Positions 38,484 through 61,602 of a stretch of DNA of 64,000 bases are shown one piece after another. The notes beneath the pieces are model-generated. The model saw only the letters and a list, made by a program, of their open reading frames with translations. It was not told where the DNA came from and did no database searches. How positions within the stretch are numbered: the stretch's first letter is position 1; each line of letters starts with the position of its first letter. A program made the translations under genes and the position numbers. The stretch comes from Oscillospiraceae bacterium (GTDB taxonomy: Bacteria; Bacillota; Clostridia; Oscillospirales; Ruminococcaceae), in the NCBI GenBank assembly GCA_017460835.1, contig JAFUAD010000039.1, positions 3,655 to 67,654 of the forward strand, written 5' to 3'.

Positions 38484-38747
38484 ATGATGATTGTTGAAAT
38501 CTGTGTCGGCTCTTCCTGCCATTTGAAAGGTGCAGAGGATATCGTCACATTATTCCAATCCGCAATTGCCGAACATCATCTGGATGAGGATATTACACTT
38601 GTCGGGAGCTTTTGCACCGGCAAGTGTAATCGTATCGGTGTGACAGTCACAATTGATGACGAGATTTATCCCGGCATTACAAAGGAGCATTTCCAGGAGT
38701 TTTTTGCCATGCATATCCTACAGCACTTTTCGGCTGAAAGCAGGTGA
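38484..38747 (+). CDS. Thioredoxin-like [2Fe-2S] ferredoxin-domain protein (tandem paralogue), 87 aa
   Basis: CVGSSCHLKG ... FCTGKCNRIG. Same architecture as the preceding gene, and it starts 1 nt after that gene's stop. Confidence 0.65.
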   Translation: MMIVEICVGSSCHLKGAEDIVTLFQSAIAEHHLDEDITLVGSFCTGKCNRIGVTVTIDDEIYPGITKEHFQEFFAMHILQHFSAESR

Positions 38748-40429
38748 ACAGAGTGAAAAGCTGTTTGACATTAAAAAAGTCGAATTGTAAGAACTGTTAT
38801 AAATGTATTCGGCATTGTCCGGTGAAATCCATTCGGTTCTCCGGCAATCAGGCTCATATTATCGAGCAGGATTGTATCCTGTGCGGACAGTGCTTTGTTG
38901 TATGTCCGCAGGATGCAAAACAGATCGTTGATGAAACGGAAAAGGTGCGCGTATTGCTGCAAAGCGGCGCACCGGTCGTAGTCAGTCTGGCACCGTCATT
39001 TATTGCAAATTACGACGGTGTTGGAATTGAATCCATGCGGAATGCACTGAAACAACTTGGTTTTTACGATGTTGAGGAAACTGCAATCGGTGCAACCTTT
39101 GTAAAGCGAGAATACGAACGGCTGCTTCGTGATGAAAAAAGAGACATCGTGATCTCCTCATGCTGCCATACTGTAAATCTGCTGATTCAAAAATATTTCC
39201 AGAAAGCACTGCCGTACTTGGCAAATGTGCTTTCCCCGATGCAGGCGCACTGCATGGATATCAAAGCACGCATTCCAAATGCGAAAACGGTTTTTATCGG
39301 TCCATGCGTTTCAAAAAAGGATGAAGCGGAATACTATGGCGACACGGTGGATGCCGTTTTAACCTTTGATGAACTGTCCGCTTGGCTGAAAAAAGAACAT
39401 ATTTCTTTGGAACAGTCTGATGCGCCCAAGACCGAGGGGCGTGCCAGATTTTTCCCGACAGCAGGCGGCATCCTGAAAACAATGGAGCAGAATCAGCCCG
39501 GGTATACATATCTGGCAGTTGACGGTGTGGAAAACTGCATCCGCGTTTTGCATGAAATTGAAAACGGCACACTCCGTCAATGTTTCATTGAAATGTCATC
39601 CTGCGCCGGAAGCTGCATCGGCGGTCCTGCTATGGAACGGCATCCGCGCAGTCCTGTGCGTGATTATATCGCAGTATCCCAATATGCGGGGACGGCGGAT
39701 TTTGCAGTGCATCAGCCGAATTATGCCGCATTGCAAAAGCAGTTTTCCTATATTGAACGCAGTGCGGCATTGCCGTCCGAGATTGAGATCAGACAAATTC
39801 TCGAACAGATGGGGAAGTTCAAACCGGAACAGGAGCTGAACTGCGGTTCCTGCGGATATGACTCCTGTCGGGAAAAGGCGATTGCGATTTATCAGGGAAA
39901 AGCCGATATGTCCATGTGCCTCCCTTATTTGAAGGAAAAAGCGGAAAGTTTTTCGGATACGATCGTAAAAAACACACCGAACGGTCTGATTGTATTGAAT
40001 CAATCGCTTGAGGTGCAGCAGATCAATGCGGCAGCAATGCAAATCATGAACATCCGCTATGCAGGTGATGTGCTGGGCGATCAGGTCGTGCGGATTCTGG
40101 AACCGAAAATCTTTCTCGATGTCCTGAAAACAGGGCGCGGTGTCTACAATGAACGTATTTATCTTGCAGAATACAGCCGCTTTGTGGAGCGTACCATTGT
40201 GCAGGACAGAGAGAGTAAAATGCTCATATGCATCATGCGTGATGTGACAAATGAGGAAAACGAGCGAAAGAAAAAAGAGACAATCAGTCGAAACACGGTT
40301 GAGGTTGCGGATAAAGTGATCGACAAGCAGATGCGGATTGTGCAGGAAATTGCATCTCTGCTCGGGGAAACAGCGGCGGAAACCAAAATTGCGCTGTCAA
40401 AGCTCAAGGAGTCGATGGAAGATGAATGA
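38744..40429 (+). CDS. hydS: Putative sensory [FeFe]-hydrogenase (HydS-type, group C) with C-terminal PAS domain, 561 aa
   Basis: Two 4Fe-4S motifs (CKNCYKCIRHCP, CILCGQCFVVCP). H-cluster-like motifs SSCCHTV, GPCVSKKDE, EMSSCAGSCIGGP. Extra CGSCGYDSC-x16-C (Cx2Cx4Cx16C) at 39842-39919, followed by a PAS-like segment. Confidence 0.8.
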   Translation: MNRVKSCLTLKKSNCKNCYKCIRHCPVKSIRFSGNQAHIIEQDCILCGQCFVVCPQDAKQIVDETEKVRVLLQSGAPVVVSLAPSFIANYDGVGIESMRNALKQLGFYDVEETAIGATFVKREYERLLRDEKRDIVISSCCHTVNLLIQKYFQKALPYLANVLSPMQAHCMDIKARIPNAKTVFIGPCVSKKDEAEYYGDTVDAVLTFDELSAWLKKEHISLEQSDAPKTEGRARFFPTAGGILKTMEQNQPGYTYLAVDGVENCIRVLHEIENGTLRQCFIEMSSCAGSCIGGPAMERHPRSPVRDYIAVSQYAGTADFAVHQPNYAALQKQFSYIERSAALPSEIEIRQILEQMGKFKPEQELNCGSCGYDSCREKAIAIYQGKADMSMCLPYLKEKAESFSDTIVKNTPNGLIVLNQSLEVQQINAAAMQIMNIRYAGDVLGDQVVRILEPKIFLDVLKTGRGVYNERIYLAEYSRFVERTIVQDRESKMLICIMRDVTNEENERKKKETISRNTVEVADKVIDKQMRIVQEIASLLGETAAETKIALSKLKESMEDE

Positions 40430-41594
40430 TCTTTGTGCAGATATCGGATATAAAAGTGTCAATCACGTCGGGGAGCAGCTCTGCGGAGATCATATCGACA
40501 TCGTGGAGCAGAATGAAAACTCGTCTGTCATTGTTCTGGCAGACGGGCTCGGCAGCGGTGTGAAGGCGAGCATTCTATCCACATTGACATCGAAAATCAT
40601 TTCTACAATGCTTGCCGCAGGATTGCCGCTTGAGGAGTGCGTCTCAACCATTGCCGCGACCCTGCCGGTGTGTTCGGTGCGCGGTGTCGCATATTCGACA
40701 TTTACCATTGTGCATCTGATCGACAATGAAATTGCAGAGTTGATTCAATATGACAATCCGCTTGTGATTTTGATTCGGGATGAAAAAGTGATCGACTATC
40801 CGCGGACGGAAATGAATATCGGCGGAAAAACAATATTTCGCTCGGAAATTCGGTTACAGGAAAACGATATTTTTATTATGATGAGCGACGGATGTCCGCA
40901 CGCAGGAATCGGACTGGCATTTAATTTCGGCTGGAAGCGAGAGGATATTGCTGACTTTATGGAGGGGCTTGCACCGGTCGGGTATACGGCAAAAACACTC
41001 TCCACGATCTTGGTGGACGAATGCGACAAGCTATACGGTCATAAGCCCGGTGACGATGCAACGGCGTGTGTCATCCGCATACGGAAGCGTGTGCCGATGA
41101 ATATTTTATTCGGACCGCCGTCCAATCGGGATGACTGTGACCGTATGATGAGTTTGTTTTTCTCCAAGGAAGGCAAGCACATTATCTGCGGCGGCACTAC
41201 ATCCACCATTGCCGCAAATTGGCTCAAAAAACCGTTGCAGGCAAGTCTTCATTTTGAACGCGGCGATGTACCGCCGATTGCCAGCATTGAGGGAGTTGAT
41301 CTGGTGACAGAGGGGGTCATCACGGTCAATAAAGTGCTGGAATATGCGAAGGATCATCTTGACCAAAATGCGCTCTATGAGCATTGGAGTCTGAAACGGG
41401 ACGGCGCTTCCCTGATCAGCCGTATGCTGTTTGAGGAAGCGACAGACATCAATTTCTATGTCGGGCGTGCGATCAATCCGGCACATCAAAATCCTGATCT
41501 GCCGATCAATTTTAGCATAAAAATGAATCTGGTACAAGAGCTTTCCGCCGCGCTCAGGCAGATGGGCAAACGCATCAAGGTCAGTTATTTCTGA
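40422..41594 (+). CDS. PP2C/SpoIIE-family serine/threonine phosphatase, 390 aa
   Basis: GEQLCGDHIDIV...VIVLADGLGSGVKASILS...IFIMMSDG are PP2C/SpoIIE metal-binding Asp motifs. ATG 40422 overlaps the hydS stop. Confidence 0.85.
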   Translation: MNDLCADIGYKSVNHVGEQLCGDHIDIVEQNENSSVIVLADGLGSGVKASILSTLTSKIISTMLAAGLPLEECVSTIAATLPVCSVRGVAYSTFTIVHLIDNEIAELIQYDNPLVILIRDEKVIDYPRTEMNIGGKTIFRSEIRLQENDIFIMMSDGCPHAGIGLAFNFGWKREDIADFMEGLAPVGYTAKTLSTILVDECDKLYGHKPGDDATACVIRIRKRVPMNILFGPPSNRDDCDRMMSLFFSKEGKHIICGGTTSTIAANWLKKPLQASLHFERGDVPPIASIEGVDLVTEGVITVNKVLEYAKDHLDQNALYEHWSLKRDGASLISRMLFEEATDINFYVGRAINPAHQNPDLPINFSIKMNLVQELSAALRQMGKRIKVSYF

Positions 41595-41614
41595 GGGAAG
41601 GAACGGGATCCGCC

Positions 41615-43048
41615 ATGCGGAAATTTGATACAAAAGTACAATATTTAAAATACAAGGTGCTGCGTGAGGTAGCGCGGCTGGCATGGCAGGGCACACTCTG
41701 GGAAAACGTTCTGAACATTCCGAAAATGATTGTACCCGGAAAAACGCCGACCATGCGGTGCTGTGTCTATAAAGAACGTGCAATTCTAGCCGAGCGTGTG
41801 AAAATCGCGATCGGGGGCAATCCGGAAAATCCGAATGTAATAGAGGTCATTGATATTGCCTGCGATGAATGTCCTGCCGCTGGTTATGAGGTAACCGACT
41901 CCTGCCGCGGCTGTCTTGCACATCGCTGTGAGGATGCCTGCCGTCGCGGTGCCATTTCATTCGACCAAAATCATACGGCACATATTGATAAATCAAAGTG
42001 TGTTGAATGTGGGCAGTGTGCGAAGGTCTGTCCGTATTCTGCGATTGCAAACCGAAAACGTCCGTGTCAGAATGCCTGTAAAATCAAGGCAATCTCAATC
42101 AATGGTGAGAATGCCGCAGCCATTGACAATGAAAAATGTATTGCCTGCGGTGCTTGCGTATATCAATGTCCGTTCGGCGCCATTATGGATAAATCCTTTA
42201 TGTTGGACGTGGTTGACTTAATCAAGCAAAGTGAAGCCGGGCAGAATTATCGGCTTTATGCAGTGGTCGCACCGTCTATTGCGAGCCAGTTTACCTATGC
42301 AAAGCTCGGTCAGGTTGTGACGGGACTGAAAAAGCTGGGGTTTCATACTGTGATCGAGGCGGCACTCGGCGCGGATATGGTCGCATATGAAGAATCGAAG
42401 GAGCTTGCAGAAAAGGGCTTTTTGACAAGTTCCTGCTGTCCGGCATTCGTGCGCTATGTGCAGACAGCCTATCCGGAACTGGCAGAGCATATTTCGCACA
42501 ATTTGTCACCAATGGCAATGATCGCAAAGTATATCAAGGATACAACTGAAAACGCAAAAATCATCTTCATCGGACCGTGTACTGCGAAAAAAATGGAGGT
42601 GCAGCTTGCGTCTGTCAAACCGTATGTAGATACTGCATTGACCTTTGAAGAATTGCAGGCACTGTTTGACAGCAGAGATATTGAGCTTTCCGAATTAGAG
42701 GAGGATGTGCTGGACAATGCCTCTTTCTACGGCCGAATCTTTGCAAGAAGCGGCGGCGTTTCCGAGGCAGTCGCACAGGCCGCGAAAGAGCATCAGATTA
42801 CAGACTTTGCGGTCAAGGCGTGCCCCTGCGATGGCATTGAGGCATGCAAAGCTGCGCTCATGCGCAAAAAGCGCAACACACTGGATGCGAACTTTATCGA
42901 AGGAATGGCATGTGAGGGCGGCTGCATCGGGGGTGCCGGCTGCCTGACACACGGTGACCGAAACAAAGCACAGGTCGATGCCTACGGAAAACAGGCGCTT
43001 GAAAAAACAATTACAGATGCAGTTTCCATGCTGCATTCCGTGCAATGA
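41615..43048 (+). CDS. hydA: Monomeric [FeFe]-hydrogenase (group B-type), 477 aa
   Basis: Ferredoxin-type clusters (CVECGQCAKVCP, CIACGACVYQCP) and H-cluster motifs TSSCCPAF, IGPCTAKKME, EGMACEGGCIGG. Confidence 0.88.
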   Translation: MRKFDTKVQYLKYKVLREVARLAWQGTLWENVLNIPKMIVPGKTPTMRCCVYKERAILAERVKIAIGGNPENPNVIEVIDIACDECPAAGYEVTDSCRGCLAHRCEDACRRGAISFDQNHTAHIDKSKCVECGQCAKVCPYSAIANRKRPCQNACKIKAISINGENAAAIDNEKCIACGACVYQCPFGAIMDKSFMLDVVDLIKQSEAGQNYRLYAVVAPSIASQFTYAKLGQVVTGLKKLGFHTVIEAALGADMVAYEESKELAEKGFLTSSCCPAFVRYVQTAYPELAEHISHNLSPMAMIAKYIKDTTENAKIIFIGPCTAKKMEVQLASVKPYVDTALTFEELQALFDSRDIELSELEEDVLDNASFYGRIFARSGGVSEAVAQAAKEHQITDFAVKACPCDGIEACKAALMRKKRNTLDANFIEGMACEGGCIGGAGCLTHGDRNKAQVDAYGKQALEKTITDAVSMLHSVQ

Positions 43049-43714: not shown

Positions 43715-43835
43715 ATGGAATCTGCCAAGTTTCTCTGCAAGAAGCTTTTGAATTTCAAGAACACAGTTATCACTGACTGCGAGTTCTATACGGATACCGA
43801 TAATATCAACCACATTCGCATTCAGGCACGTCCGA
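43715..43835 (+). mobile_element. ISL3-family transposase N-terminal fragment (about 40 codons)
   Basis: MESAKFLCKKLLNFKNTVITDCEFYTDTDNINHIRIQARPS resembles the ISL3 transposase N-terminus (LLxIKDxNIxITD...). The similarity is lost where the opposite-strand gene begins. Confidence 0.35.
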
Positions 43836-44827
43836 GTAAACGGTATCGAGCAAGGGCAGCGTGCCAGTCATCAATCCGATTACAGCACTATCTTCACTAT
43901 CCGGATACAGCCCCTTCACATGGTCAAATATCCGCTGCCACGATTCCGCAGGCTCCTCACTGTAAGCACTCGTCATAAGATCATACCCCCAGATCGTTTC
44001 CGGCGGGAACATTACAGAAACACTCATTCCGTATTCTGCGCCTTTCTTGTTTTTGCGTCGCTGAAAGTCTGTGATTACGAGATATAGCTGCATTTGCAGC
44101 CCAGTGATGATGCCGGGATAGTTTTTTAGTCCACCCTTGCCGAAACCGAATAATTTTTTCAGTTCTGTTGAGAGAATCACATCCTGATTCCAGAGTATAT
44201 CACCATCGCTATCTTCACTGATATACTTGCCTCTGTTGCAAAATATACGAATGTATATTTTGCAGGTTGCGAAGCAGCCAAAAGGTCGCTGTGCGACCTT
44301 TTACAGAGGCTGTATCACGGAGCGCTAGCGGCGCTGTGCGCCGCCCGCCGTCAAAGACGGCGGTTGCAAAATAGATATTTTGCAATAGCGCGTAGTATAT
44401 AATAATCCATGATGACCTTCTCTCGGTAAGTTGCTAGTCCGTCCTCATAGCGTGAATCAAAATCATAGCCGTTACGCCTATAATTTGCAAAGTACGGCAG
44501 CCACTTCTTGCTGATAAAGCCTGCCTTCTTGTCAAAGAACTTCCCGTATGCAACCTGATGACTTGCGGCGATGATCTCCCGCCACTCCCATGGATCCTGC
44601 TCCCTGTTACCAGTCCACCAGTAATTCGAGGAGACATGCTCTTCTGCCGAAAAGCCTGTGATGTCATTTGCGAACAGCGGCAGGAAGCCGATCTCGTTTA
44701 CCCAGCTTACAAGCTCCTGCCATGTGCGTATCCTATATGGATCATCCCAAGACAAGCCCCGCATGATCCACTCTCCGTTTTCTACTGCCATATAGTTCTG
44801 CCGCCATCCTCTCTTATCATTCTCCAC
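43806..44827 (-). pseudogene. AlkZ-related / winged-helix (HTH_42-like) protein gene split by a roughly 150-nt insert
   Basis: The N-part (44351-44827: WWTGNREQDPWEWREIIAASHQVAYGKFFDKKAGFISKKW) and C-part (43806-44230: LKKLFGFGKGGLKNYPGIITGLQMQLYLVITDFQRRKNKKG) read like one protein family (from memory). They are in different frames and are separated by a hairpin-rich block. Confidence 0.5.
44229..44385. repeat. Five-hairpin palindromic insert (MITE-like or structured-RNA element)
   Basis: Consecutive perfect stems: 44237-44264 (12 bp), 44280-44302 (10 bp), 44329-44343 (6 bp), 44345-44363 (8 bp), 44364-44385 (10 bp). Both ends carry TTGCAAAATA. Confidence 0.6.
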
Positions 44828-44886: not shown

Positions 44887-47688
44887 TTACACTAAATGAA
44901 TAGAGCCGATTCTCACTACCACCTCAAGCTGAAGTTTGCTCTTTGATCCGTTATCAAACTGAACTTCTATCACATGGATATCATCTCTTATGGTTTCAAG
45001 TCCGACAATAATCCCTTCGCCATAAGTAGCATGTTTTATCCGTGTGTTGACGGTATACGGCGCAAGGTCTGAATCAGCCTGAATGGGTTTCGTTTCCATT
45101 TTCGGTTCTTTAATTTGAACATCAGGATGACGGATGACCGGCTCTCTTGCTGTTCTGTCGGGTGGAGCAACCGAATTCACAAATTCAGATGCGCATTCGC
45201 TGACATAGAACAAATGCAGTTCGTTCTTTGCACGTGTGATCCCCACATAGAATAAGCGTCTCTCTTCCTCATAAGTATCGACACGCTCCTGCTCCGGTGC
45301 ATCTTCCCGGCACGAATGTGGGAGACATCCATCATAAACATCTACGATATAGACTGTATCAAATTCAAGCCCTTTGGCGGAATGAATAGTTGAGAGTATG
45401 ACAGGGTTCTCCTCTGTGCATTTGTAGCTCTCAATCAACTGCGGCAACTGCTCCAGTCGTGCAAGAAATCCTTTTATGGTCTCCTCATGAACGGCCAAGG
45501 CATATAGAATGTCCACCTTTCCTATGTCAAGTTCCTTTTCCTTGGCATAGGCATAGTACCAGAAACGGCAAATCAAGTCAATTGCATCATGTGGCTTTGA
45601 GGCTGCGATTTTCTTGAACTTATTCCGGAAATCCTCCGCTTTACGCATCAATGTTGGCCATTGAGACATCTGGTTTATCAGTTCATCGGCTATTGTGATT
45701 CGCTTCTGCGTAGCTTTTCTACAGCTCCAATATGCTGCATTCTTTTTGAATCCATATCCGCACTTATAATACACCTGATTAAATGCTTCGGCATCATTCA
45801 GATTGATAGCGAATCTCAGGAAATAAACAATGTCTTGAACGACCTTGCTTGTAAAAAAGTTCTCTCCAGCTTCTTTCAGACGAACAAATGGGATACTCTC
45901 ACGAAGGAACAAGTCCATCAAAGGAATAGCACTGCCGTTGTTGCGATAAAGTACTGCCATCTGACCGTGCTCTTTCTTGGATATCTCAGCAATTGCAGAA
46001 TACTGCTGATGCTTTTTTCTGACCGTTATTCTCTCAATCGGCTTTCCATCGCCTCGGCTGGCAACCATGTGCTTTTCAGAATGACGATTGATATTCTGGC
46101 TTATGAACCGTTGTGCTGCAGAGACGATGGGCTTAGTAGAGCGATAATTCGTCTCAAGAAACAGGATGTACGGGTTGGTATATGTGTCAGTGAAGTCAAG
46201 GAGCGCACGAGGGTAAGCCGCACGGAAGCGATAAATACTCTGGTCTTCGTCTCCAACCATGAAGATATTGTTATGCTTCGATGCAAGTATTCTTATGATT
46301 TCATGCTGAATTTTTGATGTGTCCTGCGCTTCATCCACACAGATATATTGATATTGAGCTTGAAACCATGCTAATACATCTGCGTAAATAATCAGGATAC
46401 TCCTTGCATAGATCAACTGGTCATCAAAATCCATGCGTTGTTGCGATTTGAGCGTGTTGACATATTTATTGAAGAACTCCTCATAGAAAGGCTCATCATG
46501 CAAATACTCAGCCCTCTGTTCAGCCGTTGTCATCATCATATTTTTGATGTAGCTGATAACTGTCTGAGCTGCAATTAAATCTGCTTCGTGCGGAAATTGG
46601 TCACCAGTAAGCGCAATGTAGATTGACTTAATGATGTTGGCTTGCTCATTCGCTTTCAGCATTGTAAATCGTGTACGCTGATGTATCTGAACATATTTAT
46701 TGATTACCTGTTCACACAGGGAATTGATAGTGCGAACGTTTAGACGTTTTGCTATCTCGGGATCGAATTTCTCTGCAAAACGCCGTTTGATGTCATTAGT
46801 CGCACTGACTGTATATGTGATCGCAAGGATATTCTCCGGAGCGATTTTCTTACAGTAGATCATGTAGCCCATTCTAGCAACCATGACTGTGGTCTTACCG
46901 CTGCCGGGGACAGCAATCATCAGATTAGCACCACTGACTGCCTGTACTGCACGCTGCTGCTGTGGGTTCAATCTGATTTTGTACTTTTCAGAAAACGTCC
47001 GGAATACCTCATCTATTTGCATATCCAGATGTAGCGGCAGAGGGCAAACACCATTAATCAGACCGACATACTCTAAAAATGCATCCTTCGTATACTTACA
47101 TTTGATAAGGAATCCATCGTTGGTAAAAGCCTGAATATGAAGGATGCATTCTCCCTCATCAGCAATCTGGAAAAACAAGTCGATTTCACCGGCACGCAGG
47201 TTATACTTCCGAAATGTTGAACGCGGCTTGCTCCATGCGAATTGGTTCACAGCTGATTCTGTGATTAATTCCTGCTCATAATCCTCTCGCATATCGTACA
47301 GCCATACAACCTTATACCCGATATTTCCATGATAGAACACGTTTCTGTCATTAAACTTTCCGGAAGAAAGCGGGCTGTGCTGAAACTCCACAACTGTTCT
47401 GTCAGTCAGAACATCTGCTCTGTGGCGTATATCATCGCACTGAACAACTACTTCCTGATTCTCAGGCGGAAACTGGTTCTGCCACCCGTAATGCCAGTCG
47501 GACATATCATACTGCCCGTTCCAGCTATCATTGCATTCGCAATTCGGATAATGAGAAAAATGACGTGCTCGTTCAGTACCTGACTTCACAAACATCTTTT
47601 CAAGACAAACAGGGCAGAAGAATGTATCGCCCTGAACCGCATCACTAATTGAAATGCGTTTTTGTTCTTTATCTAAGGCAATATACAT
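44887..47688 (-). CDS. CoiA-like nuclease domain fused to a UvrD/PcrA-type SF1 helicase with C-terminal Tudor-like tail, 933 aa
   Basis: N-terminus has FFCPVCLEKMFVKSGTERARHFSH...SDWHYGWQNQF...HRADVLTDRTVVEFQHSPLS...KVVWLYD (CoiA/PD-(D/E)xK-like). The helicase has AVPGSGKTT, VDEAQDT, VGDEDQSIYRFRAA, TNYRST, TIHSAKGLEFD, YVGITRAK. The C-terminus has HATYGEGIIVG. Confidence 0.85.
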   Translation of the reverse strand: MYIALDKEQKRISISDAVQGDTFFCPVCLEKMFVKSGTERARHFSHYPNCECNDSWNGQYDMSDWHYGWQNQFPPENQEVVVQCDDIRHRADVLTDRTVVEFQHSPLSSGKFNDRNVFYHGNIGYKVVWLYDMREDYEQELITESAVNQFAWSKPRSTFRKYNLRAGEIDLFFQIADEGECILHIQAFTNDGFLIKCKYTKDAFLEYVGLINGVCPLPLHLDMQIDEVFRTFSEKYKIRLNPQQQRAVQAVSGANLMIAVPGSGKTTVMVARMGYMIYCKKIAPENILAITYTVSATNDIKRRFAEKFDPEIAKRLNVRTINSLCEQVINKYVQIHQRTRFTMLKANEQANIIKSIYIALTGDQFPHEADLIAAQTVISYIKNMMMTTAEQRAEYLHDEPFYEEFFNKYVNTLKSQQRMDFDDQLIYARSILIIYADVLAWFQAQYQYICVDEAQDTSKIQHEIIRILASKHNNIFMVGDEDQSIYRFRAAYPRALLDFTDTYTNPYILFLETNYRSTKPIVSAAQRFISQNINRHSEKHMVASRGDGKPIERITVRKKHQQYSAIAEISKKEHGQMAVLYRNNGSAIPLMDLFLRESIPFVRLKEAGENFFTSKVVQDIVYFLRFAINLNDAEAFNQVYYKCGYGFKKNAAYWSCRKATQKRITIADELINQMSQWPTLMRKAEDFRNKFKKIAASKPHDAIDLICRFWYYAYAKEKELDIGKVDILYALAVHEETIKGFLARLEQLPQLIESYKCTEENPVILSTIHSAKGLEFDTVYIVDVYDGCLPHSCREDAPEQERVDTYEEERRLFYVGITRAKNELHLFYVSECASEFVNSVAPPDRTAREPVIRHPDVQIKEPKMETKPIQADSDLAPYTVNTRIKHATYGEGIIVGLETIRDDIHVIEVQFDNGSKSKLQLEVVVRIGSIHLV

Positions 47689-47713
47689 TTTCTGCCCTCC
47701 TTTGACTATTCAC

Positions 47714-48574
47714 TTATTTATGCTTATTACGATAATCCTGCACCATCTCGCGTGTAATCGGATATGGATCACCAAGCATCCACTTGCAATCGTAAAATTT
47801 CCAAATTCTCTCCAATTCCTCTTCCGAATCGATTCCAAGCTGATACATCTTTACCTGAACCAAAGTCAATTCATACCATTTGCAATCATAGTGCAGACAC
47901 AAGGCATCTAATTCATCTCCGCTTTCAATACCAAGTTCCATCATATATATATCTATTTCATCAGGTGCATTTCTGTCTTCCTGTTCACACATAATAGCCA
48001 TTTCAAAGCACTTCTGAAGAAGATAGCCAAACGGAATCGACAGTTTTTCAGACAACTCGGAAATAAGGCAGCAGGTAGAAGTATCAAATCCAAGTTCATC
48101 CGTAGCGTGGATAAAGTCCTCAAAATAGCGCCAGTCCGATGAGCTCATATATTTTTGGGAGTCCATCTTATCGAATATTGCGTCGAGTCTGCTGCTTGAT
48201 GCAAGGAGGCTATCCAGCACTTCACGATTGTCCGGGATTTCCGGCTTTTCTCTTCGCAGTTCCGAGGGAGTTTTCCCATACTCTTTGGTCACAGCCCTCG
48301 TAAAAGCCGACTGATCAGAATACCCGTATTCCAGCGCAATCTCAGCCAGCGGCTTCTCAGGATGGTTGATCAGGTCACCTACAGCAAAGAAGAGCTTACG
48401 CTTTCGGATGTAGTCACGCAGCGTGAATGCTCCAGACGAGACAACAGCAAGATATTTGTTGTAATCCTGGTCGCAGTAACCGGTCTCGGCGTAAACCTTC
48501 CTTACGATCTCGCTGTGCTTGAGGCGGATGTCCCGATCAATGATAGTTAACGCAGTGTCAAGAACTTTACTCAT
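47714..48574 (-). CDS. AraC-type HTH protein with an unknown repeat-containing C-terminal domain, 286 aa
   Basis: IALEYGYSDQSAFTRAVTKEYGKTPSELR is an AraC HTH. The C-terminal half carries two copies of LGI(E/D)S..EL(D/E)....(Y)DCKW. Confidence 0.7.
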   Translation of the reverse strand: MSKVLDTALTIIDRDIRLKHSEIVRKVYAETGYCDQDYNKYLAVVSSGAFTLRDYIRKRKLFFAVGDLINHPEKPLAEIALEYGYSDQSAFTRAVTKEYGKTPSELRREKPEIPDNREVLDSLLASSSRLDAIFDKMDSQKYMSSSDWRYFEDFIHATDELGFDTSTCCLISELSEKLSIPFGYLLQKCFEMAIMCEQEDRNAPDEIDIYMMELGIESGDELDALCLHYDCKWYELTLVQVKMYQLGIDSEEELERIWKFYDCKWMLGDPYPITREMVQDYRNKHK

Positions 48575-48677
48575 AGTGTTGAGTACCTCCTTTATTTGAT
48601 GTCTCTATTATATCAGAAAGGAAACATAAAGTCTTGACATTCAAGCAGCATTAGAAGTCAACGAGGTAGTCAGCTTC

Positions 48678-48986
48678 TCACACTCCCAGATGCTTCTCAA
48701 AAATCCTCATAATCTCCTCGGCACGTTTTTCTCCGATACCCCTGATGGCTTTTATATCTTTCTCAATCTCTCGAAGATCCAAAATCTTGCTGTCATCAGT
48801 ACCATCAACATCTTCATCAACGATCACCCCTGCCTCAGCCAGACCTTTCTTCCGTCCGCGTTCAAAGATATCGTTTAATAGCCCTTCGAGCGTGACTCTA
48901 TCCATGCGCTTAACTGCCTTGTAGAGGTTTCGGTCGAGGAGAGGGGCTGTGTCCTCTGTGGTCGTATTCATATCGTCTGTGGACAT
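48678..48986 (-). CDS. Small acidic protein with helix-hairpin-helix-like motif, 102 aa
   Basis: IRGIGEKRAEEIMRIF resembles an HhH motif. No other recognisable features. Confidence 0.5.
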   Translation of the reverse strand: MSTDDMNTTTEDTAPLLDRNLYKAVKRMDRVTLEGLLNDIFERGRKKGLAEAGVIVDEDVDGTDDSKILDLREIEKDIKAIRGIGEKRAEEIMRIFEKHLGV

Positions 48987-49715: not shown

Positions 49716-51944
49716 TCACTTCAGCACGCTTTCAAGCGGCTGCCAGTTATCGCCGACCATTGAATCGGTATACTCCGTATTACAAATAAATAGATCACCA
49801 TCATTATCTCGTACAAAGCCCCACTTTACACCATATCTTTTAGCATAGTCCTTGAATGCCTCAAACTTGTTCTCGACCTGCATATCAATATTCTTTGAAT
49901 AGCCGGCACTCATTCCGCCCTTTGTTTCGATGATCCAAACCTCGCCGTTTGTGAGCTTCACAATGTAGTCGGGATAGAACAGCCACTGCTTGCCGGAGAA
50001 ACCATCCAGATATACAACAGAGAAATACTGCTGTCCGGCATCACCGTTCTTGTATACCCATTCGACCGCATCGCATCTCTCGCAGAATTTCTCAAAGAGG
50101 CGTTCCGAATCGCTTTTTCGAGTTTCACTGGTAATAAATTCCGTAGTATAGCCTGCATAGACGTTTTTCGTCATCGGCTTGATTTGCTTGACAAAGCTGA
50201 ATTTATACAGCTCCGATTCAGGAATTGTGAACGTTGCAGTTTTTGCCTGCCCGGACATAGCGAGTTGGAGCTGCTTGCCGCTTTCCTTCGCCATGATCTC
50301 GCGGAATTCTTGCTTGAGCATTTTGATATTGTTGATGATGAATGCATAGAAATCGCTTGTATTCAATGCAATTAGTTTGAACTTTGTCTTTTTCCCTTTT
50401 AGGAAAAGTCGGTTCAGAATCTTTCTGGCTCTCTGCGCCGGAATGGATGTGATTGTCTTGATATCCTCAACAGCGCGCATGAGGTAGATACCATGTGTAT
50501 GAGTGTTGATTTTCGTCTTGATCTCTACCTTTTTCGATGAGCCGGCATTCGCCAGATCGGATGCGGTTCTGAATTCACCGCGGAGAACCTGACTGTCAAT
50601 CTCGTGTGAGAAGCTGTATCCCGCTGATTCGAGAGCGAGCTGGTTATCTGTTGTCCTGGAACCGAGGTGATACTTCTCCTTGAAATGCTCATATACCTTG
50701 CGCATCATCTCACGTTCACCGATATCACTATCAACATCGTGGTTACGCATTTCTTTGGTAAGGGAGAAATCCCGCACTTCCGGTTTCAGGAACAGCTTTC
50801 TGACCTGATATGCTTTATCGAGTGCAGTCAACAGGTCGTTCTTGTACTCGGTGTCAAGGGTATAGATGAAACATAGATCGAGAACGCCGGGAAAAAGATA
50901 GTGCTTACGCTCCGGCATACGGCGGATTCTGCCGATGGTCTGGATCTGGAAACGCTCACTGCCGCCCTCACGCAGCTTGACGAGAATCTTGGCGCGGGGG
51001 CAGTCCCAGCCGGTAGCAACCGCTTGCTTCATGAGCAGGAACGCAGGCGCACCGTTGGGTGCGGTGAGGTCTTCACTGATAACCTTCTGATCGCTCATCC
51101 AGATGTTGACCATGCCGTTATCGTAGGTGTAGCCCATTGATGCGAGTTTATCCTCAACAGCCTTGATGGTTTCAGGCTGCCCCACAGGGAACTGAATCAG
51201 CACCAGCGGACGGATATCGACATCGATAGAGTCATATGCTCCGAGTATCTCCTGACGCTTCATATCCGCTAATTTGAGTAGAATGTCATAATCATCGGAA
51301 ATACGCTCCGAGTCCTCCACGCCCTCATTGACATAGATAGCCCGTGTGATAAGCCCTGCATCGATGACCTCTTCCTCCGGAATTTCGTAGAATTCCTGAT
51401 GCGGCACCTTGATTGGCGTAGCGGATACACGGATGATATGCACGGGCTTGAACGCCTCGATTATGTCATTAGCTTTTGAGGTGTTGTTCTCATGCTCTTC
51501 ATCAATGATGACAATGAAGCGGATTCCGTCGTTGTGCGCTTCTTCGATCTTCTCAAAGAGGTTCTTTCTTTCGCCGTCCTTGAGGGCATTATTCTTCTTG
51601 CGGGTGACAAGCTCCCAGTTGATGAAGGTGACGCTCCTGCCCTCGAAACCGCAGAGCATGGAGTACGGGAGCGAACGGGTGTCGATGTGCGGTGCAAGCG
51701 AGTCCATGCGATCCTTGCTCTGCTCCTCCAGATTGCCCTTTCCGGGGCAGAGCCAGACGAACGCAGTCTTGCCGTCTGTGTTCTTCAGATATGCATCAAC
51801 ATACTTCACCAGAATGACGGTTTTGCCTGCTCCGGTCGGTGCTTTGACCGTAACGATCTGCTTTGTTCCGGAGGCGGTTGTTTTATTGTAAAGGAAATCG
51901 ACACAGTTTTCCTGAAATTCGTAGTTTTCGATGCCGTTTACCAT
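49716..51944 (-). CDS. res: Type III restriction enzyme Res subunit (SF2 helicase + PD-(D/E)xK endonuclease), 742 aa
   Basis: APTGAGKT (motif I), IIDEEHEN (motif II), VSATP (motif III), and the C-terminal YPDYIV...WIIETKGG nuclease motif. Overlaps the mod stop by 7 nt. Confidence 0.88.
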   Translation of the reverse strand: MVNGIENYEFQENCVDFLYNKTTASGTKQIVTVKAPTGAGKTVILVKYVDAYLKNTDGKTAFVWLCPGKGNLEEQSKDRMDSLAPHIDTRSLPYSMLCGFEGRSVTFINWELVTRKKNNALKDGERKNLFEKIEEAHNDGIRFIVIIDEEHENNTSKANDIIEAFKPVHIIRVSATPIKVPHQEFYEIPEEEVIDAGLITRAIYVNEGVEDSERISDDYDILLKLADMKRQEILGAYDSIDVDIRPLVLIQFPVGQPETIKAVEDKLASMGYTYDNGMVNIWMSDQKVISEDLTAPNGAPAFLLMKQAVATGWDCPRAKILVKLREGGSERFQIQTIGRIRRMPERKHYLFPGVLDLCFIYTLDTEYKNDLLTALDKAYQVRKLFLKPEVRDFSLTKEMRNHDVDSDIGEREMMRKVYEHFKEKYHLGSRTTDNQLALESAGYSFSHEIDSQVLRGEFRTASDLANAGSSKKVEIKTKINTHTHGIYLMRAVEDIKTITSIPAQRARKILNRLFLKGKKTKFKLIALNTSDFYAFIINNIKMLKQEFREIMAKESGKQLQLAMSGQAKTATFTIPESELYKFSFVKQIKPMTKNVYAGYTTEFITSETRKSDSERLFEKFCERCDAVEWVYKNGDAGQQYFSVVYLDGFSGKQWLFYPDYIVKLTNGEVWIIETKGGMSAGYSKNIDMQVENKFEAFKDYAKRYGVKWGFVRDNDGDLFICNTEYTDSMVGDNWQPLESVLK

Positions 51945-53569
51945 ATCTCGCCCGCCTCCCTCAGTTCAAAATCAAAGTAGTAATCCGGAATGATGTAGGA
52001 GTCGATCTTTTCAAGCAGCGCCTCCTGCGAAGAAGAGAGGAACACATCCTGATTGATGAACACTGCACAGAGATCGGGGTAGTTCCCGATATTCTGCTCG
52101 AAAGCATCCATCTCCTCATCGGTCATGATGATGACATACTTCTGGTCATCGATCTTGACACCATGCTCAAGCTGTATCATTTCACGGATATGTTCTAAGA
52201 GGTTTTCGGACAGTTCCTCCGACTCTTTCTCTACAAAATCCGTGCGGAAGTACATGAGGTTTGCAGGGATGCCTTCAGAGTATTCGCTGCCATCCTGACG
52301 CTTTCCGGTGATGACGGTTTTTATGCGCTGATAGGTTACTCCCTCGCAAATATTGTTTTCGTTATTTGTGCAGAGGATGAACTTGCGCTTTCCGCCGTCT
52401 TCGGCATTTTGAGCTAATACTGCATGAGCCGTTGTACCTGAACCCGCAAAGAAGTCAAGAACGATAGAGTTAGGATTTGACGCTATATGTATAATACGCT
52501 TTATCAATTCTGTAGGCTTTGGAGTGTCAAACGGTGCCTTACCGCCAAATATATCCTTCAGTTCAGCCGTCGCTTGACGAGTAGTTCCTGCCACACCTCC
52601 AACCCAAATGTTTTCTGGAACCTTTCCATCTAAGTCAGAGAGGTAGAGTTTGTGTATGATATTCGTTTGATCAGCATTAAAGATTATTTCACCAGAATCT
52701 ATTTTTGATTGCATAGTTTCTTTACTCCATCTCCAACCTTTTTCTGGAGGAGCAATGATATTTCCGTTAGGCGCAATGACTTCATATACCAAATTTGGTC
52801 TGTACAATCCGTTTACACAATATCCAGCTCTCCACGGTCCTCTCGGATCATTGTCTGGATTTCTATACATCTTATTGTCTTTATCAGTCCTCGGTAGATT
52901 TTTCAAAATGAACTGTGGTTTTGCGTATACTAAAGTATGATTAAACTGAGAAACAAATTTTCCACCATATCCATTTGCTTGTAAACTATGTTGCCATATA
53001 ACATCAGCTAAAAAGCAAGACTCACCAAACAATTCATCACAAAGCAATTTAAGATTAGCCTGTTCTCTATCATCTATACTGATGAAAATAGCACCTGCAT
53101 TACTAAGAAGTTTCCATGCCATTTGCAGACGGCTTCTCATAAAGGAAATCCACTTGCTATGTTTATAAGTATCATCATCGCCAATCATTGTATCATCATA
53201 AATGAATTCCTTGTTCCCTGTATTGTAAGGCGGATCAATATAAATTAAATCGATTCTACCAGAATGTGTTTTTTCAAGCAGGCGTAGGGAGTGCAGGTTG
53301 TCACCCTCAAGCAGGAAGTTATACTGCTCACTATTGGGATCACCGTTGATCTCCATGCTCTCATCTGCCGTGAACACAGGGATATGTGTCCGCATCATTA
53401 CATCGACAGCTTCCTCGTGCTCTTCCCACACAAGACCATATTTCTTTGCCTTCAGCTCCTTTTCAATCTCGCCGAGCGCAATCAGGGAATCATCGTCCGT
53501 GTGTTGCGATTTCAGCATTTCGAGAAAGGCGAGCATCCTCTCTCGCTTCTGTTGTGACAGGTTTGCCAT
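51938..53569 (-). CDS. mod: Type III (beta-class) N6/N4 DNA methyltransferase Mod subunit, 543 aa
   Basis: IYIDPPYNTG (motif IV) precedes VLDFFAGSGTTAHAV (motif I), the beta-class order typical of Type III Mod. Confidence 0.88.
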   Translation of the reverse strand: MANLSQQKRERMLAFLEMLKSQHTDDDSLIALGEIEKELKAKKYGLVWEEHEEAVDVMMRTHIPVFTADESMEINGDPNSEQYNFLLEGDNLHSLRLLEKTHSGRIDLIYIDPPYNTGNKEFIYDDTMIGDDDTYKHSKWISFMRSRLQMAWKLLSNAGAIFISIDDREQANLKLLCDELFGESCFLADVIWQHSLQANGYGGKFVSQFNHTLVYAKPQFILKNLPRTDKDNKMYRNPDNDPRGPWRAGYCVNGLYRPNLVYEVIAPNGNIIAPPEKGWRWSKETMQSKIDSGEIIFNADQTNIIHKLYLSDLDGKVPENIWVGGVAGTTRQATAELKDIFGGKAPFDTPKPTELIKRIIHIASNPNSIVLDFFAGSGTTAHAVLAQNAEDGGKRKFILCTNNENNICEGVTYQRIKTVITGKRQDGSEYSEGIPANLMYFRTDFVEKESEELSENLLEHIREMIQLEHGVKIDDQKYVIIMTDEEMDAFEQNIGNYPDLCAVFINQDVFLSSSQEALLEKIDSYIIPDYYFDFELREAGEIW

Positions 53570-53579
53570 GTGTGTCCTC

Positions 53580-54482
53580 CTATTTATCTATTCTTCTTGC
53601 GTCTTTTATGAGTTGAAGTTGCTCTTCAGTGATTGGATAACGAGAATATATCCACTCTTTAGCGCATTGAGCTATACTCCACTGAACCTCTCGTATAAAT
53701 TCATCGGGTAAATCCATAAGAACATTGCGTTTTCTGCGTGTTTCTTCACTGTTTGGTATCATGTACAACACCATAGTTGGTGAGAGCGGAAAGATGACTT
53801 TTTCTGGTCGATCCATACTAAAATCAATCGTATCCCGTTCACTATGGAAAAGGAAAATCGGCCGGTCCGCTGTGAAGAAAACAGGTTCTTTGGAACGCCC
53901 AATAATAAACGCCATATCCTCAAACCAGTTTGCAATCCGCCAGAAGATGCTGTTTCTCTCAACATCAAACTTCCCATCAATAAAAGCATCTAAGCAGTTC
54001 CATACAGCAACATTTCTAGCCTCATTTGCTTTTAATTGATCGGGAAACATTTCATTGAGTAGGTCTTCGGCACTGGATAATACAAATGGATATCGTAAGA
54101 TTTGCAATGTCATAAATGCCATTAATAGTGCTTTTTCTTTGGAGGATAGAAAGCATCTCGTGTGAAGATTCTTATCATTCTCGGCATTCCTCAATACTTG
54201 ACCGATAGTGTTTGAAAACTCTATTTCATAACGAGACAGAGTATTTTCTACGCTGTTCCTATAAATGAAGTTGCTTTCTTCATCCTTAAATTCGTAAAGG
54301 TGTTTCTCAAAGCAGATACTTTCAATACGAATTTGATCAGGAAGCTGCTTCATTTCAGTCAGATTATATGCCCATATTAGGTCTTTAAACTTTCCTTTAT
54401 TTAGCTTTCTCTCAGAAAAGCGACGCAGATGCATTCTTGGTACAAAGTGTTCATCTGTTGTTGGTTTTTTATCATTGGCCAT
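53580..54482 (-). CDS. DUF4238-family protein, 300 aa
   Basis: The N-terminal EHFVPRMHLRRFS matches the H(Y/F)VP..(Y/H)L..F signature I associate with DUF4238. There are 10-nt gaps to both neighbouring genes. Confidence 0.75.
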   Translation of the reverse strand: MANDKKPTTDEHFVPRMHLRRFSERKLNKGKFKDLIWAYNLTEMKQLPDQIRIESICFEKHLYEFKDEESNFIYRNSVENTLSRYEIEFSNTIGQVLRNAENDKNLHTRCFLSSKEKALLMAFMTLQILRYPFVLSSAEDLLNEMFPDQLKANEARNVAVWNCLDAFIDGKFDVERNSIFWRIANWFEDMAFIIGRSKEPVFFTADRPIFLFHSERDTIDFSMDRPEKVIFPLSPTMVLYMIPNSEETRRKRNVLMDLPDEFIREVQWSIAQCAKEWIYSRYPITEEQLQLIKDARRIDK

Positions 54483-54492
54483 ATAGTCACCA

Positions 54493-57428: not shown

Positions 57429-58169
57429 ATGGAAAACAAAAATCTATCTGATGATAGCATCGATCTCAGTGGCTTCAGTACAGTTCACCTTGACTGCGCT
57501 AATAGTGTGTTGCAAGAGAGGCGGCTTGTTTTGGAGCTGACGCAGAAGCAAATTGCTGAAAGAGCTGGAATCCCGTTATCTACATACAAAAAATTTGAGT
57601 CCGGTGAGCGAAATATCCGCACAGCAGCATTTGAAGTGACTTGCCGTGTGCTGAATGCTTTGGAACTTGATATTGAAGGCTTCTACCACGGAATCTATGC
57701 TATCGGCGAGGAGGTATATATTGACGAGGAGGGGCAGAAGTATGTCCGCACAGGTAGACTGACCTCCGAGGAGATTGATGATGACGAGGCAATCAATGTC
57801 GTGCGTGTACATATAGTTGATCGTTCTCTTATCATTCCGCTGAAGCTGCTCCGAATCATCAATAACCCGGATAAGATTCATCTGATGTATCACAAGGACG
57901 ACAGGCGTTTTGGTATCCGTGTGTTAAAGGAGTCCACTGACGGCGCTATCTATATCCCGCAGGAAGTTTACAGCGGAAAATGGCGCGGCATTCGTATTGA
58001 GAACGATGTGTTCATTGACCTTATCTATTCTATTATACAGAGAGACACAGGGAGATACTTTGTAGAGCCGCACTTTAATGAATACGGATTTATCGTGCAT
58101 TTAGATGAAACCGTGAAATCTGACTATAAGACGAAGCCAGATAAGTATTATCTGCTTAATCTGGAGTAA
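57429..58169 (+). CDS. XRE-family HTH protein with an unknown C-terminal domain, 246 aa
   Basis: LELTQKQIAERAGIPLSTYKKFESGERNIR is a Cro/C1-type HTH. GGAGG RBS is present. Divergent from the defence operon. Confidence 0.8.
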   Translation: MENKNLSDDSIDLSGFSTVHLDCANSVLQERRLVLELTQKQIAERAGIPLSTYKKFESGERNIRTAAFEVTCRVLNALELDIEGFYHGIYAIGEEVYIDEEGQKYVRTGRLTSEEIDDDEAINVVRVHIVDRSLIIPLKLLRIINNPDKIHLMYHKDDRRFGIRVLKESTDGAIYIPQEVYSGKWRGIRIENDVFIDLIYSIIQRDTGRYFVEPHFNEYGFIVHLDETVKSDYKTKPDKYYLLNLE

Positions 58170-58185
58170 CAGGAAGAAACAGAAT

Positions 58186-58467
58186 ATGAGAAGCGATAAG
58201 AAAGCGTATGTCAGCCCACATAATCCTGATGTTATGGTGCTTCCGGCTGATCCGAAAGCAGTTCAGGAAGCGCATGAACAGGATGCAAGCCGAATGTCAG
58301 TGAAAAGCGAACTGCTCGACCTATACCGCAAATTGAGCGCAGCACGCATTAAACTCGAAGAGGACGACCGCATTATCGATCTTATTTTGCAGCAGCGGAA
58401 CCAGATCGCAGCCGAGATTGCAGATATGGAACAGCGTGTTCAGGAGCTGGAGGAAAGGAAGATATAA
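58186..58467 (+). CDS. Small coiled-coil hypothetical protein, 93 aa
   Basis: ORF between the XRE and WYL genes with short gaps (16 and 4 nt). The C-terminal half is heptad-like. Confidence 0.5.
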   Translation: MRSDKKAYVSPHNPDVMVLPADPKAVQEAHEQDASRMSVKSELLDLYRKLSAARIKLEEDDRIIDLILQQRNQIAAEIADMEQRVQELEERKI

Positions 58468-58471
58468 CACA

Positions 58472-59482: not shown

Positions 59483-59556
59483 TCCACGTTTAGTGTACAA
59501 ATTAGCCGCATTCAGCACTATAAACACAAAATTAAATATTCTGTTGATATATTTCT

Positions 59557-59613
59557 GCCTCTTGAAATCCTGTTGCACGTTTATTTGTGCAGCAGACTTC
59601 AAGAGGCATTTTT
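59557..59613 (+). terminator. Rho-independent terminator after the WYL gene
   Basis: GCCTCTTGAA...CTGTTGCAC-loop-GTGCAGCAG...TTCAAGAGGC, followed by ATTTTT. Confidence 0.75.
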
Positions 59614-59617
59614 CCTC

Positions 59618-59646
59618 TTTACAAACGTTCCAAGATGTGCTATAAT
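59618..59646 (+). promoter_or_regulatory. Sigma-A-type promoter of the LexA-like repressor gene
   Basis: TTTACA - 17 nt - TATAAT with a TGc extended -10. Predicts a roughly 165-nt leader. Confidence 0.6.
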
Positions 59647-59816
59647 AGATTTAAGGGTACAGTCTGTTACCTAAAATCAAGGAATTTCGCCGAAAACACG
59701 TTGTTGAGGTTCTCAAAACTGTCCCTGCAAGGTCGCTCTGGCGGGCGATTTTGTCTCCGGACGGTAGGAAAAAGAGACCTACAGGACTCCGCAGCATGAT
59801 GAAAGGGTGTTATAGT

Positions 59817-60443: not shown

Positions 60444-60556
60444 GAACAACATAAAGCTATATATAGATGTAAGTGCAAGACATAGAAAAGCAAAGCACAA
60501 GATATAGGGCAAGGCAAGGATGCAATAGAACTACTATCATTTTCACAGAGGGGTTG

Positions 60557-61288: not shown

Positions 61289-61412
61289 TGGTGTTAATGG
61301 TATTGGAGACACCGGATAAACCTTTACAATTGAATAAAAAGCCATGAATGATATGGCAGACGATATTTATCGTAAAAAACCGTGCAGCAAGTGGGTTGTA
61401 CGAAGAGTCAGT

Positions 61413-61602
61413 GGGACTGAAGTATATCGCTAAATATCAACTGCCTGTCAGAGATGGGGCTGAGTGTAACCTTATATTGATAAGGGAGCAGCTCCGGGCT
61501 ACGAGCAGCAGAATGGCTGTGTGATGAACACGGATTCTGTTTTGTTGCTGTACCCTCTGACAGGCAAGATGTTGATATAGCGTGTATTTCAGTCCCTTTT
61601 TT
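61413..61602 (+). ncRNA. Candidate structured RNA / long inverted repeat with U-tail
   Basis: The 41-42-nt imperfect arms (61413-61453 and 61555-61596) have perfect 9- and 12-nt ends (GGGACTGAA...TGCCTGTCAGAG). They enclose about 100 nt and are followed by TTTTTT. Confidence 0.4.

Follow-up and report, generated by a model that had tools for sequence, protein, structure and literature searches.

Helicases of the UvrD and PcrA type move 3'->5' along single-stranded DNA in an ATP-driven manner, and the Tudor domain of UvrD and PcrA binds RNA polymerase. Nuclease-helicase effectors are known from defence islands. Nhi combines its nuclease with a Upf1-like (AAA_11/AAA_12) helicase of superfamily 1B (SF1B), and the partner of GajB in Gabija is the OLD-family ATPase/TOPRIM nuclease GajA. 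The nuclease of AddA and RecB is C-terminal, of the PDDEXK_1/Cas4 type, and is accompanied by a partner protein, AddB or RecC. The CoiA family is defined by a PD-ExQ form of the catalytic site (PMC1189080). Pneumococcal CoiA is a monomeric nicking enzyme; at 5'-tailed single-strand/duplex junctions its cut lies one nucleotide inside the duplex, and it acts synergistically with the helicase RadA to resolve D-loops (bioRxiv 10.1101/2024.02.06.579203). Here we describe a gene that encodes a CoiA-type nuclease and a UvrD-type helicase of superfamily 1A (SF1A) as one 933-amino-acid protein. It lies in a defence island, directly downstream of an AraC-like regulator gene, on the minus strand of a stretch of 64,000 nucleotides (the window) from an Oscillospiraceae bacterium (GenBank assembly GCA_017460835.1, contig JAFUAD010000039.1, positions 3,655 to 67,654). 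The best explanation for the fusion and its regulator is that they form a small mobile operon of defence and mobile-element islands in gut and rumen Clostridia, and we give about even chances to the proposal that the product is a regulator-controlled effector attacking branched or single-stranded intermediates of invading DNA. The parts of the fusion gene, in window coordinates, are as follows.

44887-47688, minus strand: gene for the CoiA-nuclease/UvrD-helicase/Tudor-tail fusion, 933 amino acids (open reading frame, translation, Pfam domains)
47530-47664, minus strand: CoiA_N C2H2 zinc ribbon, residues 9-53, with C25, C28, H43 and H46 (Pfam PF25164)
47284-47511, minus strand: PD-ExQ nuclease core, residues 60-135, with E79, D92, E101 and Q103 (Pfam PF06054, conserved columns, AlphaFold2)
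46981-47283, minus strand: beta-rich subdomain (142-199) and flexible linker between nuclease and helicase (about 205-236) (AlphaFold2, alignment)
45199-46980, minus strand: SF1A helicase core of the UvrD/PcrA type, residues 237-830, with Walker A K265 (Pfam, 1pjr)
44890-45066, minus strand: putative UvrD/PcrA-like Tudor tail, residues about 875-933 (PDB sequence matches, PcrA alignment)

The open reading frame starts with ATG and has an AGGAGG ribosome-binding site 8 nt 5' of it; NCBI nr already lists an identical protein under the name 'UvrD-helicase domain-containing protein [Oscillospiraceae bacterium]'. CoiA_N (PF25164) matched residues 9-53 above its gathering score (E 6.5e-11) and CoiA_nuc (PF06054) matched residues 84-152 (E 1e-5, 26 bits against a cut-off of 20.3), the latter as a partial match to model positions 29-99 only. 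The UvrD-helicase and UvrD_C profiles matched residues 240-503 (E 6e-60) and 511-830 (E 5e-43), respectively. A first-pass annotation, made from the DNA letters without database searches, had proposed a CoiA-like zinc ribbon and nuclease followed by a complete SF1A motif set. All three sets of profiles (CoiA, UvrD-helicase and UvrD_C) matched, the N-terminal domain included, and the observation of a CoiA-nuclease/UvrD-helicase fusion at 44887-47688 is confirmed.

Conservation was assessed in an alignment of 23 full-length family members sharing 35-67% identity. C25, C28, H46, E79, H89, R90, D92 and Q103 do not vary among these members, conservation of E101 is at least 90%, and the motifs that the first-pass annotation had quoted are exactly those that are conserved. 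When canonical CoiA of Staphylococcus aureus, from the spxA-mecA-coiA-pepF locus, was added to the alignment, the zinc ligands C25, C28, H43 and H46 remained invariant, as did the columns of D92, E101 and Q103, which align with its IPDI...IELQ. The equivalents of these catalytic residues in pneumococcal CoiA, D95 and E105, are essential (bioRxiv 10.1101/2024.02.06.579203). The helicase motifs are likewise invariant without exception (Walker A AVPGSGKT, DEAQD, GDEDQ, NYRS, TxHxxKGxE and TR). Judged from its sequence, the protein apparently consists of a conserved CoiA-type nuclease, active in appearance, covalently joined to an SF1A helicase that also looks active; at the level of these domain matches it is a member of both the CoiA nuclease family and the UvrD/PcrA helicase superfamily.

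The AlphaFold2 model of residues 1-236 (predicted local distance difference test score, pLDDT, 88) contains the zinc ribbon and an alpha-beta-beta-beta-alpha-beta core, a topology of PD-(D/E)xK type, in which D92 is placed in strand 2 and E101 and Q103 in strand 3. An extra beta-rich subdomain follows at residues 142-199 (pLDDT above 90 for residues 170-210), and then a linker that is predicted to be flexible (pLDDT about 51-59 for residues 221-236). The stretch comprising the subdomain and the linker is aligned in the full-length relatives, and stand-alone CoiA-like proteins end at about residue 178. The N-terminal module, which had been put at roughly 140 amino acids, is instead about 200 amino acids long and includes this subdomain.

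The PcrA structure 1pjr matched the helicase at E 5.5e-71, the four-subdomain core (1A/1B/2A/2B) aligning lengthwise and through the tail. The pcrA equivalog model TIGR01073 aligned up to model position 712 of 725 with a score of 324.5 bits against a cut-off of 911.2, and since this is far under the equivalog cut-off the fusion protein is not a PcrA orthologue. It shares with PcrA, UvrD and Rep the complete motif set, the four-subdomain core and a putative UvrD-like C-terminal Tudor module, but falls under the equivalog thresholds, has an unusual Walker A (AVPGSGKT) and an N-terminal nuclease module of roughly 235 amino acids, and lives in islands with its own regulator. The likeness to CoiA comprises the C2H2 zinc ribbon, the PD-ExQ core, the catalytic D/E/Q in the same columns and the pairing of nuclease with helicase; unlike RadA, however, the helicase is present in cis and is of the SF1A UvrD family. 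These resemblances bear on the simplest alternative, namely that the protein is the host's competence protein CoiA or its housekeeping helicase PcrA in an unusual fused form. In favour of this are the CoiA_N and CoiA_nuc scores, the PcrA-like helicase and one homologue labelled 'competence protein CoiA family protein' in NCBI. Nevertheless, identity to canonical CoiA is 22-25% over about 180 amino acids, the C-terminal region of the canonical stand-alone protein (about 320 amino acids) is missing and the helicase stands in its place, the spxA-mecA-coiA-pepF synteny is absent, and the genomic position is variable and in islands. Together with the equivalog score, these differences largely refute such an identity, and we consider it highly improbable.

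Like AddA and RecB, including the neighbouring gene at 54493-57192, the fusion has a UvrD-family motor covalently joined to a nuclease of the PD-(D/E)xK superfamily, predicted in the case of the fusion, which implies that unwinding and cutting are coupled. Here, however, the nuclease is N-terminal, CoiA-type and without an AddB- or RecC-like partner; furthermore, PDDEXK_1 gave no match in the fusion and the addA and recB models matched its helicase motifs only, far under their cut-offs, so that membership of this group was rejected. With Nhi, Hna and GajB the fusion shares the logic of a nuclease plus a superfamily 1 or 2 helicase encoded in a defence island. The first-pass annotation had drawn an analogy to Nhi and GajB, and this stands for the general logic and not for membership, as the defining features of both systems are lacking. 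The nuclease of Nhi is a different one, the N-terminal domain of the fusion matched no PADLOC Nhi model at E<=1, and its helicase is UvrD-type SF1A. The GajB models matched the helicase core (E 2.5e-74), but GajA is absent and the flanking genes, which are AraC-like and AlkZ-related, have no PADLOC match.

PADLOC-DB v2 contains no model for the fusion architecture. The whole protein drew only the generic GajB and RTasHel helicase models, and the N-terminal domain alone matched only the DruB zinc ribbon (E<=1). A literature search found no paper on a CoiA-UvrD fusion or on a CoiA nuclease in defence. These results agree with the first-pass annotation, in which the architecture was not known to be among named defence systems, and the combination with regulators and swappable tails appears to be undescribed. 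As a separate observation, the CoiA_N ribbon (residues 2-53; 47530-47685) is similar to the N-terminal end of Druantia DruB (PADLOC E 1.6e-4), and a small zinc ribbon of this kind may recur as a module among defence proteins.

For the C-terminal tail, the Pfam PcrA_UvrD_tudor profile gave a weak match (E 0.14), and a search of the tail alone against PDB sequences at E<=10 returned only 7EGS_B and 6YI2_A, which are UvrD C-terminal Tudor-domain structures (E 0.05). A UvrD-type Tudor identity is weakly but specifically supported by these matches. The earlier description of the tail as Tudor-like therefore holds in so far as three comparisons agree on the UvrD/PcrA type, with weaker support than for the other domains. 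The tail is not a fixed part of the family. In a regular-expression screen of 134 full-length members, 61 had a conserved zinc ribbon, 41 had no tail or another one and 32 had a Tudor-like tail, this last count being low because further Tudor-like tails are recognisable by eye. Since a relative that is 69% identical to the window protein carries the zinc ribbon and not the Tudor tail, the tail exchange must be recent. In most non-Ruminococcus members the Tudor is replaced by a conserved module of about 60 amino acids (EVKDRFxQQ...DSxGxRWxxCxxCGxIK...NLGxC..C), described here from members P0046, P0047, P0057, P0061 and P0236-P0306; a charged coiled-coil-like stretch comes before it, and its only Pfam match is a weak one, to DUF7685.

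The fusion gene is not alone. Directly 5' of it on the same strand are a second gene and a conserved leader, with the following features.

47714-48574, minus strand: AraC-family partner gene, 286 amino acids, with a MarA/SoxS/Rob-type N-terminal DNA-binding domain (Pfam HTH_18, HTH_AraC)
47689-47713, minus strand: intergenic spacer of 25 nt with the AGGAGG ribosome-binding site (sequence)
48575-48661, minus strand: conserved putative promoter/operator and 87-bp leader (comparative alignment of 8 loci)
48661-48634, minus strand: inverted repeat TTGAC-N18-GTCAA (invariant in 8 loci)
48615-48607, minus strand: putative extended -10, TGATATAAT (invariant in 8 loci as TGrTAyAAT)
48593-48586, minus strand: ribosome-binding site in the leader of the AraC-like gene (sequence)
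48678-48986, minus strand: small helix-hairpin-helix (HhH) open reading frame, 102 amino acids (weak Pfam HHH match, C-terminal motif)

The same 286-amino-acid AraC-like gene was found directly 5' of the fusion, on the same strand and 18-26 nt away, at all nine close-homologue genome loci, with the exception that at one of them (L007) just its last 94 residues remain. All other neighbours differ among these nine loci, and the pairing recurs in further contexts (L191, L196). The arrangement is kept even in a distant clade (L198), where the AraC-like partner is 33-35% identical and the fusion 43% identical. A terminator scan of the 25-nt spacer found none, which implies that the two genes are co-transcribed. 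In other clades the AraC-like gene is replaced by a small membrane protein (DUF6442) and a 71-amino-acid XRE regulator, again 5' of the fusion and tightly coupled to it. The first-pass annotation had spoken of a single-protein system, and this does not strictly hold in view of the conserved regulator gene directly upstream.

The AraC-like partner has the bipartite DNA-binding domain (Pfam HTH_18, E 4e-13, plus HTH_AraC), and a Foldseek search with its AlphaFold2 model matched SoxS, MarA, Rob and STM3175 over residues 1-110 only. Its C-terminal domain (residues about 116-286; 47714-48230, minus strand) matched no known fold in the Foldseek search; it is all-helical, contains one or two repeats of the form LGIxSxxELxxxCxHYxCKWYELT and has conserved cysteines at C168, C189, C226 and C231. 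This domain could be metal- or redox-sensing. Upstream of the AraC-like gene, TTGAC-N18-TGTCAAGAC, the extended -10 (TGrTAyAAT) and the leader are unchanged across eight loci, and mean identity is 80% in the 87-bp leader, 71% in the coding DNA and 47% in the DNA further upstream. The promoter was recognised by comparative alignment; a promoter and terminator consensus scan gave results at or below the shuffled expectation. The inverted repeat is probably an operator, most likely for autoregulation. The 102-amino-acid HhH open reading frame lies outside the conserved promoter. It is directly 5' of the AraC-like gene in L008, L196 and L003, and tblastn detected a remnant in L001/L002, making it a frequent yet not obligatory companion. 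In L007 (22-9979; Ruminococcus callidus ATCC 27760, NZ_CP186925.1) a remnant of the HhH open reading frame lies about 9.5 kb from the AraC-like remnant, which suggests that an insertion of about 9.5 kb broke the regulator and left the fusion gene intact.

The fusion, defined by CoiA_N, CoiA_nuc and the UvrD domains together, is present in at least 120 clusters at 90% identity from Oscillospiraceae, Lachnospiraceae and metagenomes of the gut or rumen. Full-length copies in named genomes come without exception from Ruminococcus or Oscillospiraceae, and one more distant member is from Mobilitalea. The cluster representatives retrieved in an exhaustive search with the N-terminal domain numbered 3,522. 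Among the best 150, about 25-30 are full-length fusions and the remainder are stand-alone CoiA-like proteins of 300-450 amino acids with unrelated C-termini. Relatives of the helicase half without the nuclease (37-44% identity) start at about residue 229 and are abundant in gut metagenomes. A split version was sought, and no separate CoiA-like gene was found beside these nuclease-less relatives in about 160 loci. Several fusion copies have decayed: the copy in L017 is split in two, that in L019 is truncated and P0058 is without Walker A and motif II.

The tight coupling of regulator and effector genes (gaps of 2-25 nt) and the autoregulatory-looking operator that is invariant across loci would also be expected if the pair were a selfish module of mobile elements, in which the AraC-like or XRE protein would repress or neutralise a potentially toxic nuclease-helicase in the manner of an antitoxin, serving addiction, abortive infection or the element's own replication or transfer. 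In addition, genes for a large serine recombinase, a relaxase/NikA, TnpV and MazE-like proteins adjoin the module at some loci, and one member (L105) sits on a contig classed as viral. However, no consistent link to any one element type was seen, and a 286-amino-acid MarA-type regulator would be atypical as an antitoxin. A tblastn search with the N-terminal domain against 50,697 GenBank phage records gave no match, which leaves a phage origin unsupported; the corresponding search of plasmid records matched only distant CoiA-family proteins of proteobacteria and cyanobacteria. Furthermore, the R. callidus effector is intact despite its disrupted AraC-like gene, which speaks against a lethal toxin that has to be neutralised. 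We therefore regard a selfish module as quite unlikely.

The proposal of an effector against invading DNA draws on the neighbours of the fusion, which were surveyed within about 10 kb of the module in about 17 distinct neighbourhoods. Restriction or defence genes were found in about two thirds of them. The neighbours at individual loci are as follows.

Window locus: Type III Mod/Res-like genes, DUF4238, UvrD-PDDEXK gene
L017: McrBC, Schlafen-type helicase, NUDIX
L019: MmeI/Eco57I-type methylase, T5orf172
L185: LlaJI-type restriction-modification system with two C5 methylases
L189: GmrSD, DUF2726 helicase
L191: SNF2 helicase, large serine recombinase, relaxase
L196: HinfI restriction-modification system, CAP12-type TIR protein
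L004/L005: DISARM-like helicase/DUF1998/PLD set
L006: Eco57I, ResIII, GmrSD
L003: SLFN_AlbA_2, NYN
L001: AAA_13 ATPase
L105 and L027: GmrSD, PLD-helicase-DUF3427 protein

The first-pass annotation had placed the gene in a defence island next to a restriction-modification system, and in the window the module does lie about 2 kb from a pair of Type III Mod and Res-like genes, together with a DUF4238 gene and a second UvrD-nuclease. It had also named mainly housekeeping or competence surroundings of the homologues as an outcome that would speak against immunity, and this is not what the survey found. A blind Pfam census was then made of every open reading frame of at least 130 amino acids within +-5 kb. 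Around 20 fusion loci (136 open reading frames) it counted ResIII and HTH_3 five times each, DEAD four times, C5 methylase three times, and Schlafen-type helicase, SRAP, GmrSD, resolvase/recombinase and integrase twice each. Around 19 control loci of nuclease-less helicase relatives (125 open reading frames) it found metabolic and housekeeping families, and none of the families just listed reached two. Judged by these neighbourhoods, the fusion gene is a credible candidate for an immune function.

Several observations weigh against this proposal. The census is small, with 20 fusion loci against 19 control loci, its controls come from other taxa, and it compares only Pfam families present in two or more members. 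Lack of synteny had to be rejected as a stand-alone argument for mobility, since the control loci likewise share no neighbours, and three loci (L007, L008 and L188) have no obvious defence genes in their neighbourhoods. In the Foldseek search of the N-terminal model against the PDB no significant structural neighbour was found (best E 0.15); the weak matches were to Bax1, Can2, restriction enzymes, XPF and MUS81, and this result neither strengthens nor contradicts the Pfam assignment to CoiA. PD-lambda-4B was considered as a precedent and rejected, as its 'CoiA' match is to the zinc ribbon only (residues 1-66). Since PADLOC has no model for the N-terminal domain, the CoiA nuclease core is without precedent in a validated system. 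Finally, genes of repair type occur in several neighbourhoods (SRAP, LexA-like proteins, a Y-family polymerase and a pseudogene related to AlkZ), and a stress-induced repair enzyme would also be expected to have a MarA/SoxS-type regulator and a UvrD-type Tudor tail.

These last points lead to the alternative of an accessory, horizontally mobile enzyme of DNA repair or recombination. Such an enzyme would be stress-induced by the MarA/SoxS-type regulator and would ride RNA polymerase via the Tudor tail, while its CoiA nuclease would resolve host D-loops, R-loops, stalled forks or crosslink intermediates. It would fit a helicase that is closest to PcrA, UvrD and Rep, a tail that resembles the RNA-polymerase-binding domain of UvrD, a nuclease of the family to which CoiA belongs, itself a helicase-assisted resolvase of recombination D-loops, and a regulator whose DNA-binding domain resembles SoxS, MarA and Rob. 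Repair-type genes in the window (the AlkZ-related pseudogene and a LexA-like gene), in L196 (SRAP and a LexA-like S24 protein) and in L186 (a Y-family polymerase) point the same way, as do the housekeeping-like contexts of the nuclease-less helicase relatives. On the other hand, the distribution is patchy, with no fixed chromosomal position even within Ruminococcus, and restriction or defence genes and recombinases dominate the neighbours. The tail is exchangeable, the zinc ribbon being commoner than the Tudor in the regular-expression screen, copies are often decayed, and in other members an unrelated pair of XRE and membrane protein replaces the regulator. Taking both sides together, we consider a mobile repair enzyme a serious alternative, if a rather unlikely one.

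If the fusion is an effector against invading DNA, as we favour, it would unite an SF1A motor, a CoiA-type PD-ExQ endonuclease and a swappable C-terminal adaptor in one polypeptide. The regulator of the MarA/SoxS type would bind TTGAC-N18-GTCAA at its own promoter and set the expression of both genes. The Tudor tail would recruit the effector, possibly via RNA polymerase, and the motor would load on nicks, 3' tails, forks, D-loops or R-loops of phage or plasmid DNA. Unwinding would yield a 5'-tailed junction at which the CoiA-type nuclease could cut, and in this way the replication or recombination intermediates of the invader would be destroyed. Since a 3'->5' motor at a fork or D-loop would make a 5'-tailed junction on the displaced strand, the preferred substrate of CoiA, unwinding and junction cleavage should be coupled in the fusion. 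Alternatively, since a flexible linker ties the nuclease to helicase domain 1A, the nuclease could be positioned where the tracked strand exits, as it is in RecB. We infer the substrates, the strand polarity, the link to RNA polymerase, the regulatory logic and, from the genomic context, the immune function itself.

A more specific and speculative proposal, which we hold to be improbable, is that the fusion is a self-contained helicase and resolvase that does in cis the job of RadA and CoiA in trans and has been repurposed as anti-recombination or anti-replication immunity. It would patrol with RNA polymerase via the Tudor tail or the zinc-ribbon adaptor and cut RecA D-loops, R-loops and recombination-dependent forks of incoming phage, plasmid or transforming DNA, with the Cys-containing domain of the AraC-like protein serving as a sensor of infection or stress. 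If so, this would be defence that recognises the structure of recombination intermediates and not sequence or modification.

Whatever its role, the fusion combines the recently characterised chemistry of a D-loop resolvase with a UvrD motor, and in this clade with a tail that likely binds RNA polymerase. If it is a defence system, gut and rumen Clostridia, which experimental defence screens have covered poorly, would have contributed a new effector family, and the CoiA nuclease fold would gain a role outside natural transformation. If it acts in repair instead, it would exemplify the circulation of repair functions on defence islands. Structure-sensing immunity and mobile repair are directly testable by three point mutants, and the interchangeable tails and regulators provide a natural experiment on effector targeting and control.

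The island around the module contains further genes. Upstream of it on the minus strand are a 742-amino-acid ResIII helicase with a weak and partial match to Type III Res models (49716-51944), a Type III Mod methylase (51938-53569, PADLOC E 2e-144), the DUF4238 gene (53580-54482) and a UvrD helicase with a C-terminal PDDEXK_1/Cas4 nuclease (54493-57192). This helicase-nuclease cluster (49716-57192) may be a composite or atypical restriction-modification-like system. To the right of the island, on the plus strand (57429-63636), genes for an HTH_3 protein, a LexA-like S24 repressor (59751-60443), DUF7768 and a sigma-70 region-4 protein may be what is left of a prophage or integrative element at its border. 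On the 3' side of the fusion the AlkZ-related, DNA glycosylase-like gene is split into two minus-strand open reading frames (43806-44180 and 44351-44827), one spanning profile positions 1-110 and the other 117-216, and is probably a pseudogene. Genes for an [FeFe]-hydrogenase and SpoIIE (38744-43048) form the left border of the island.

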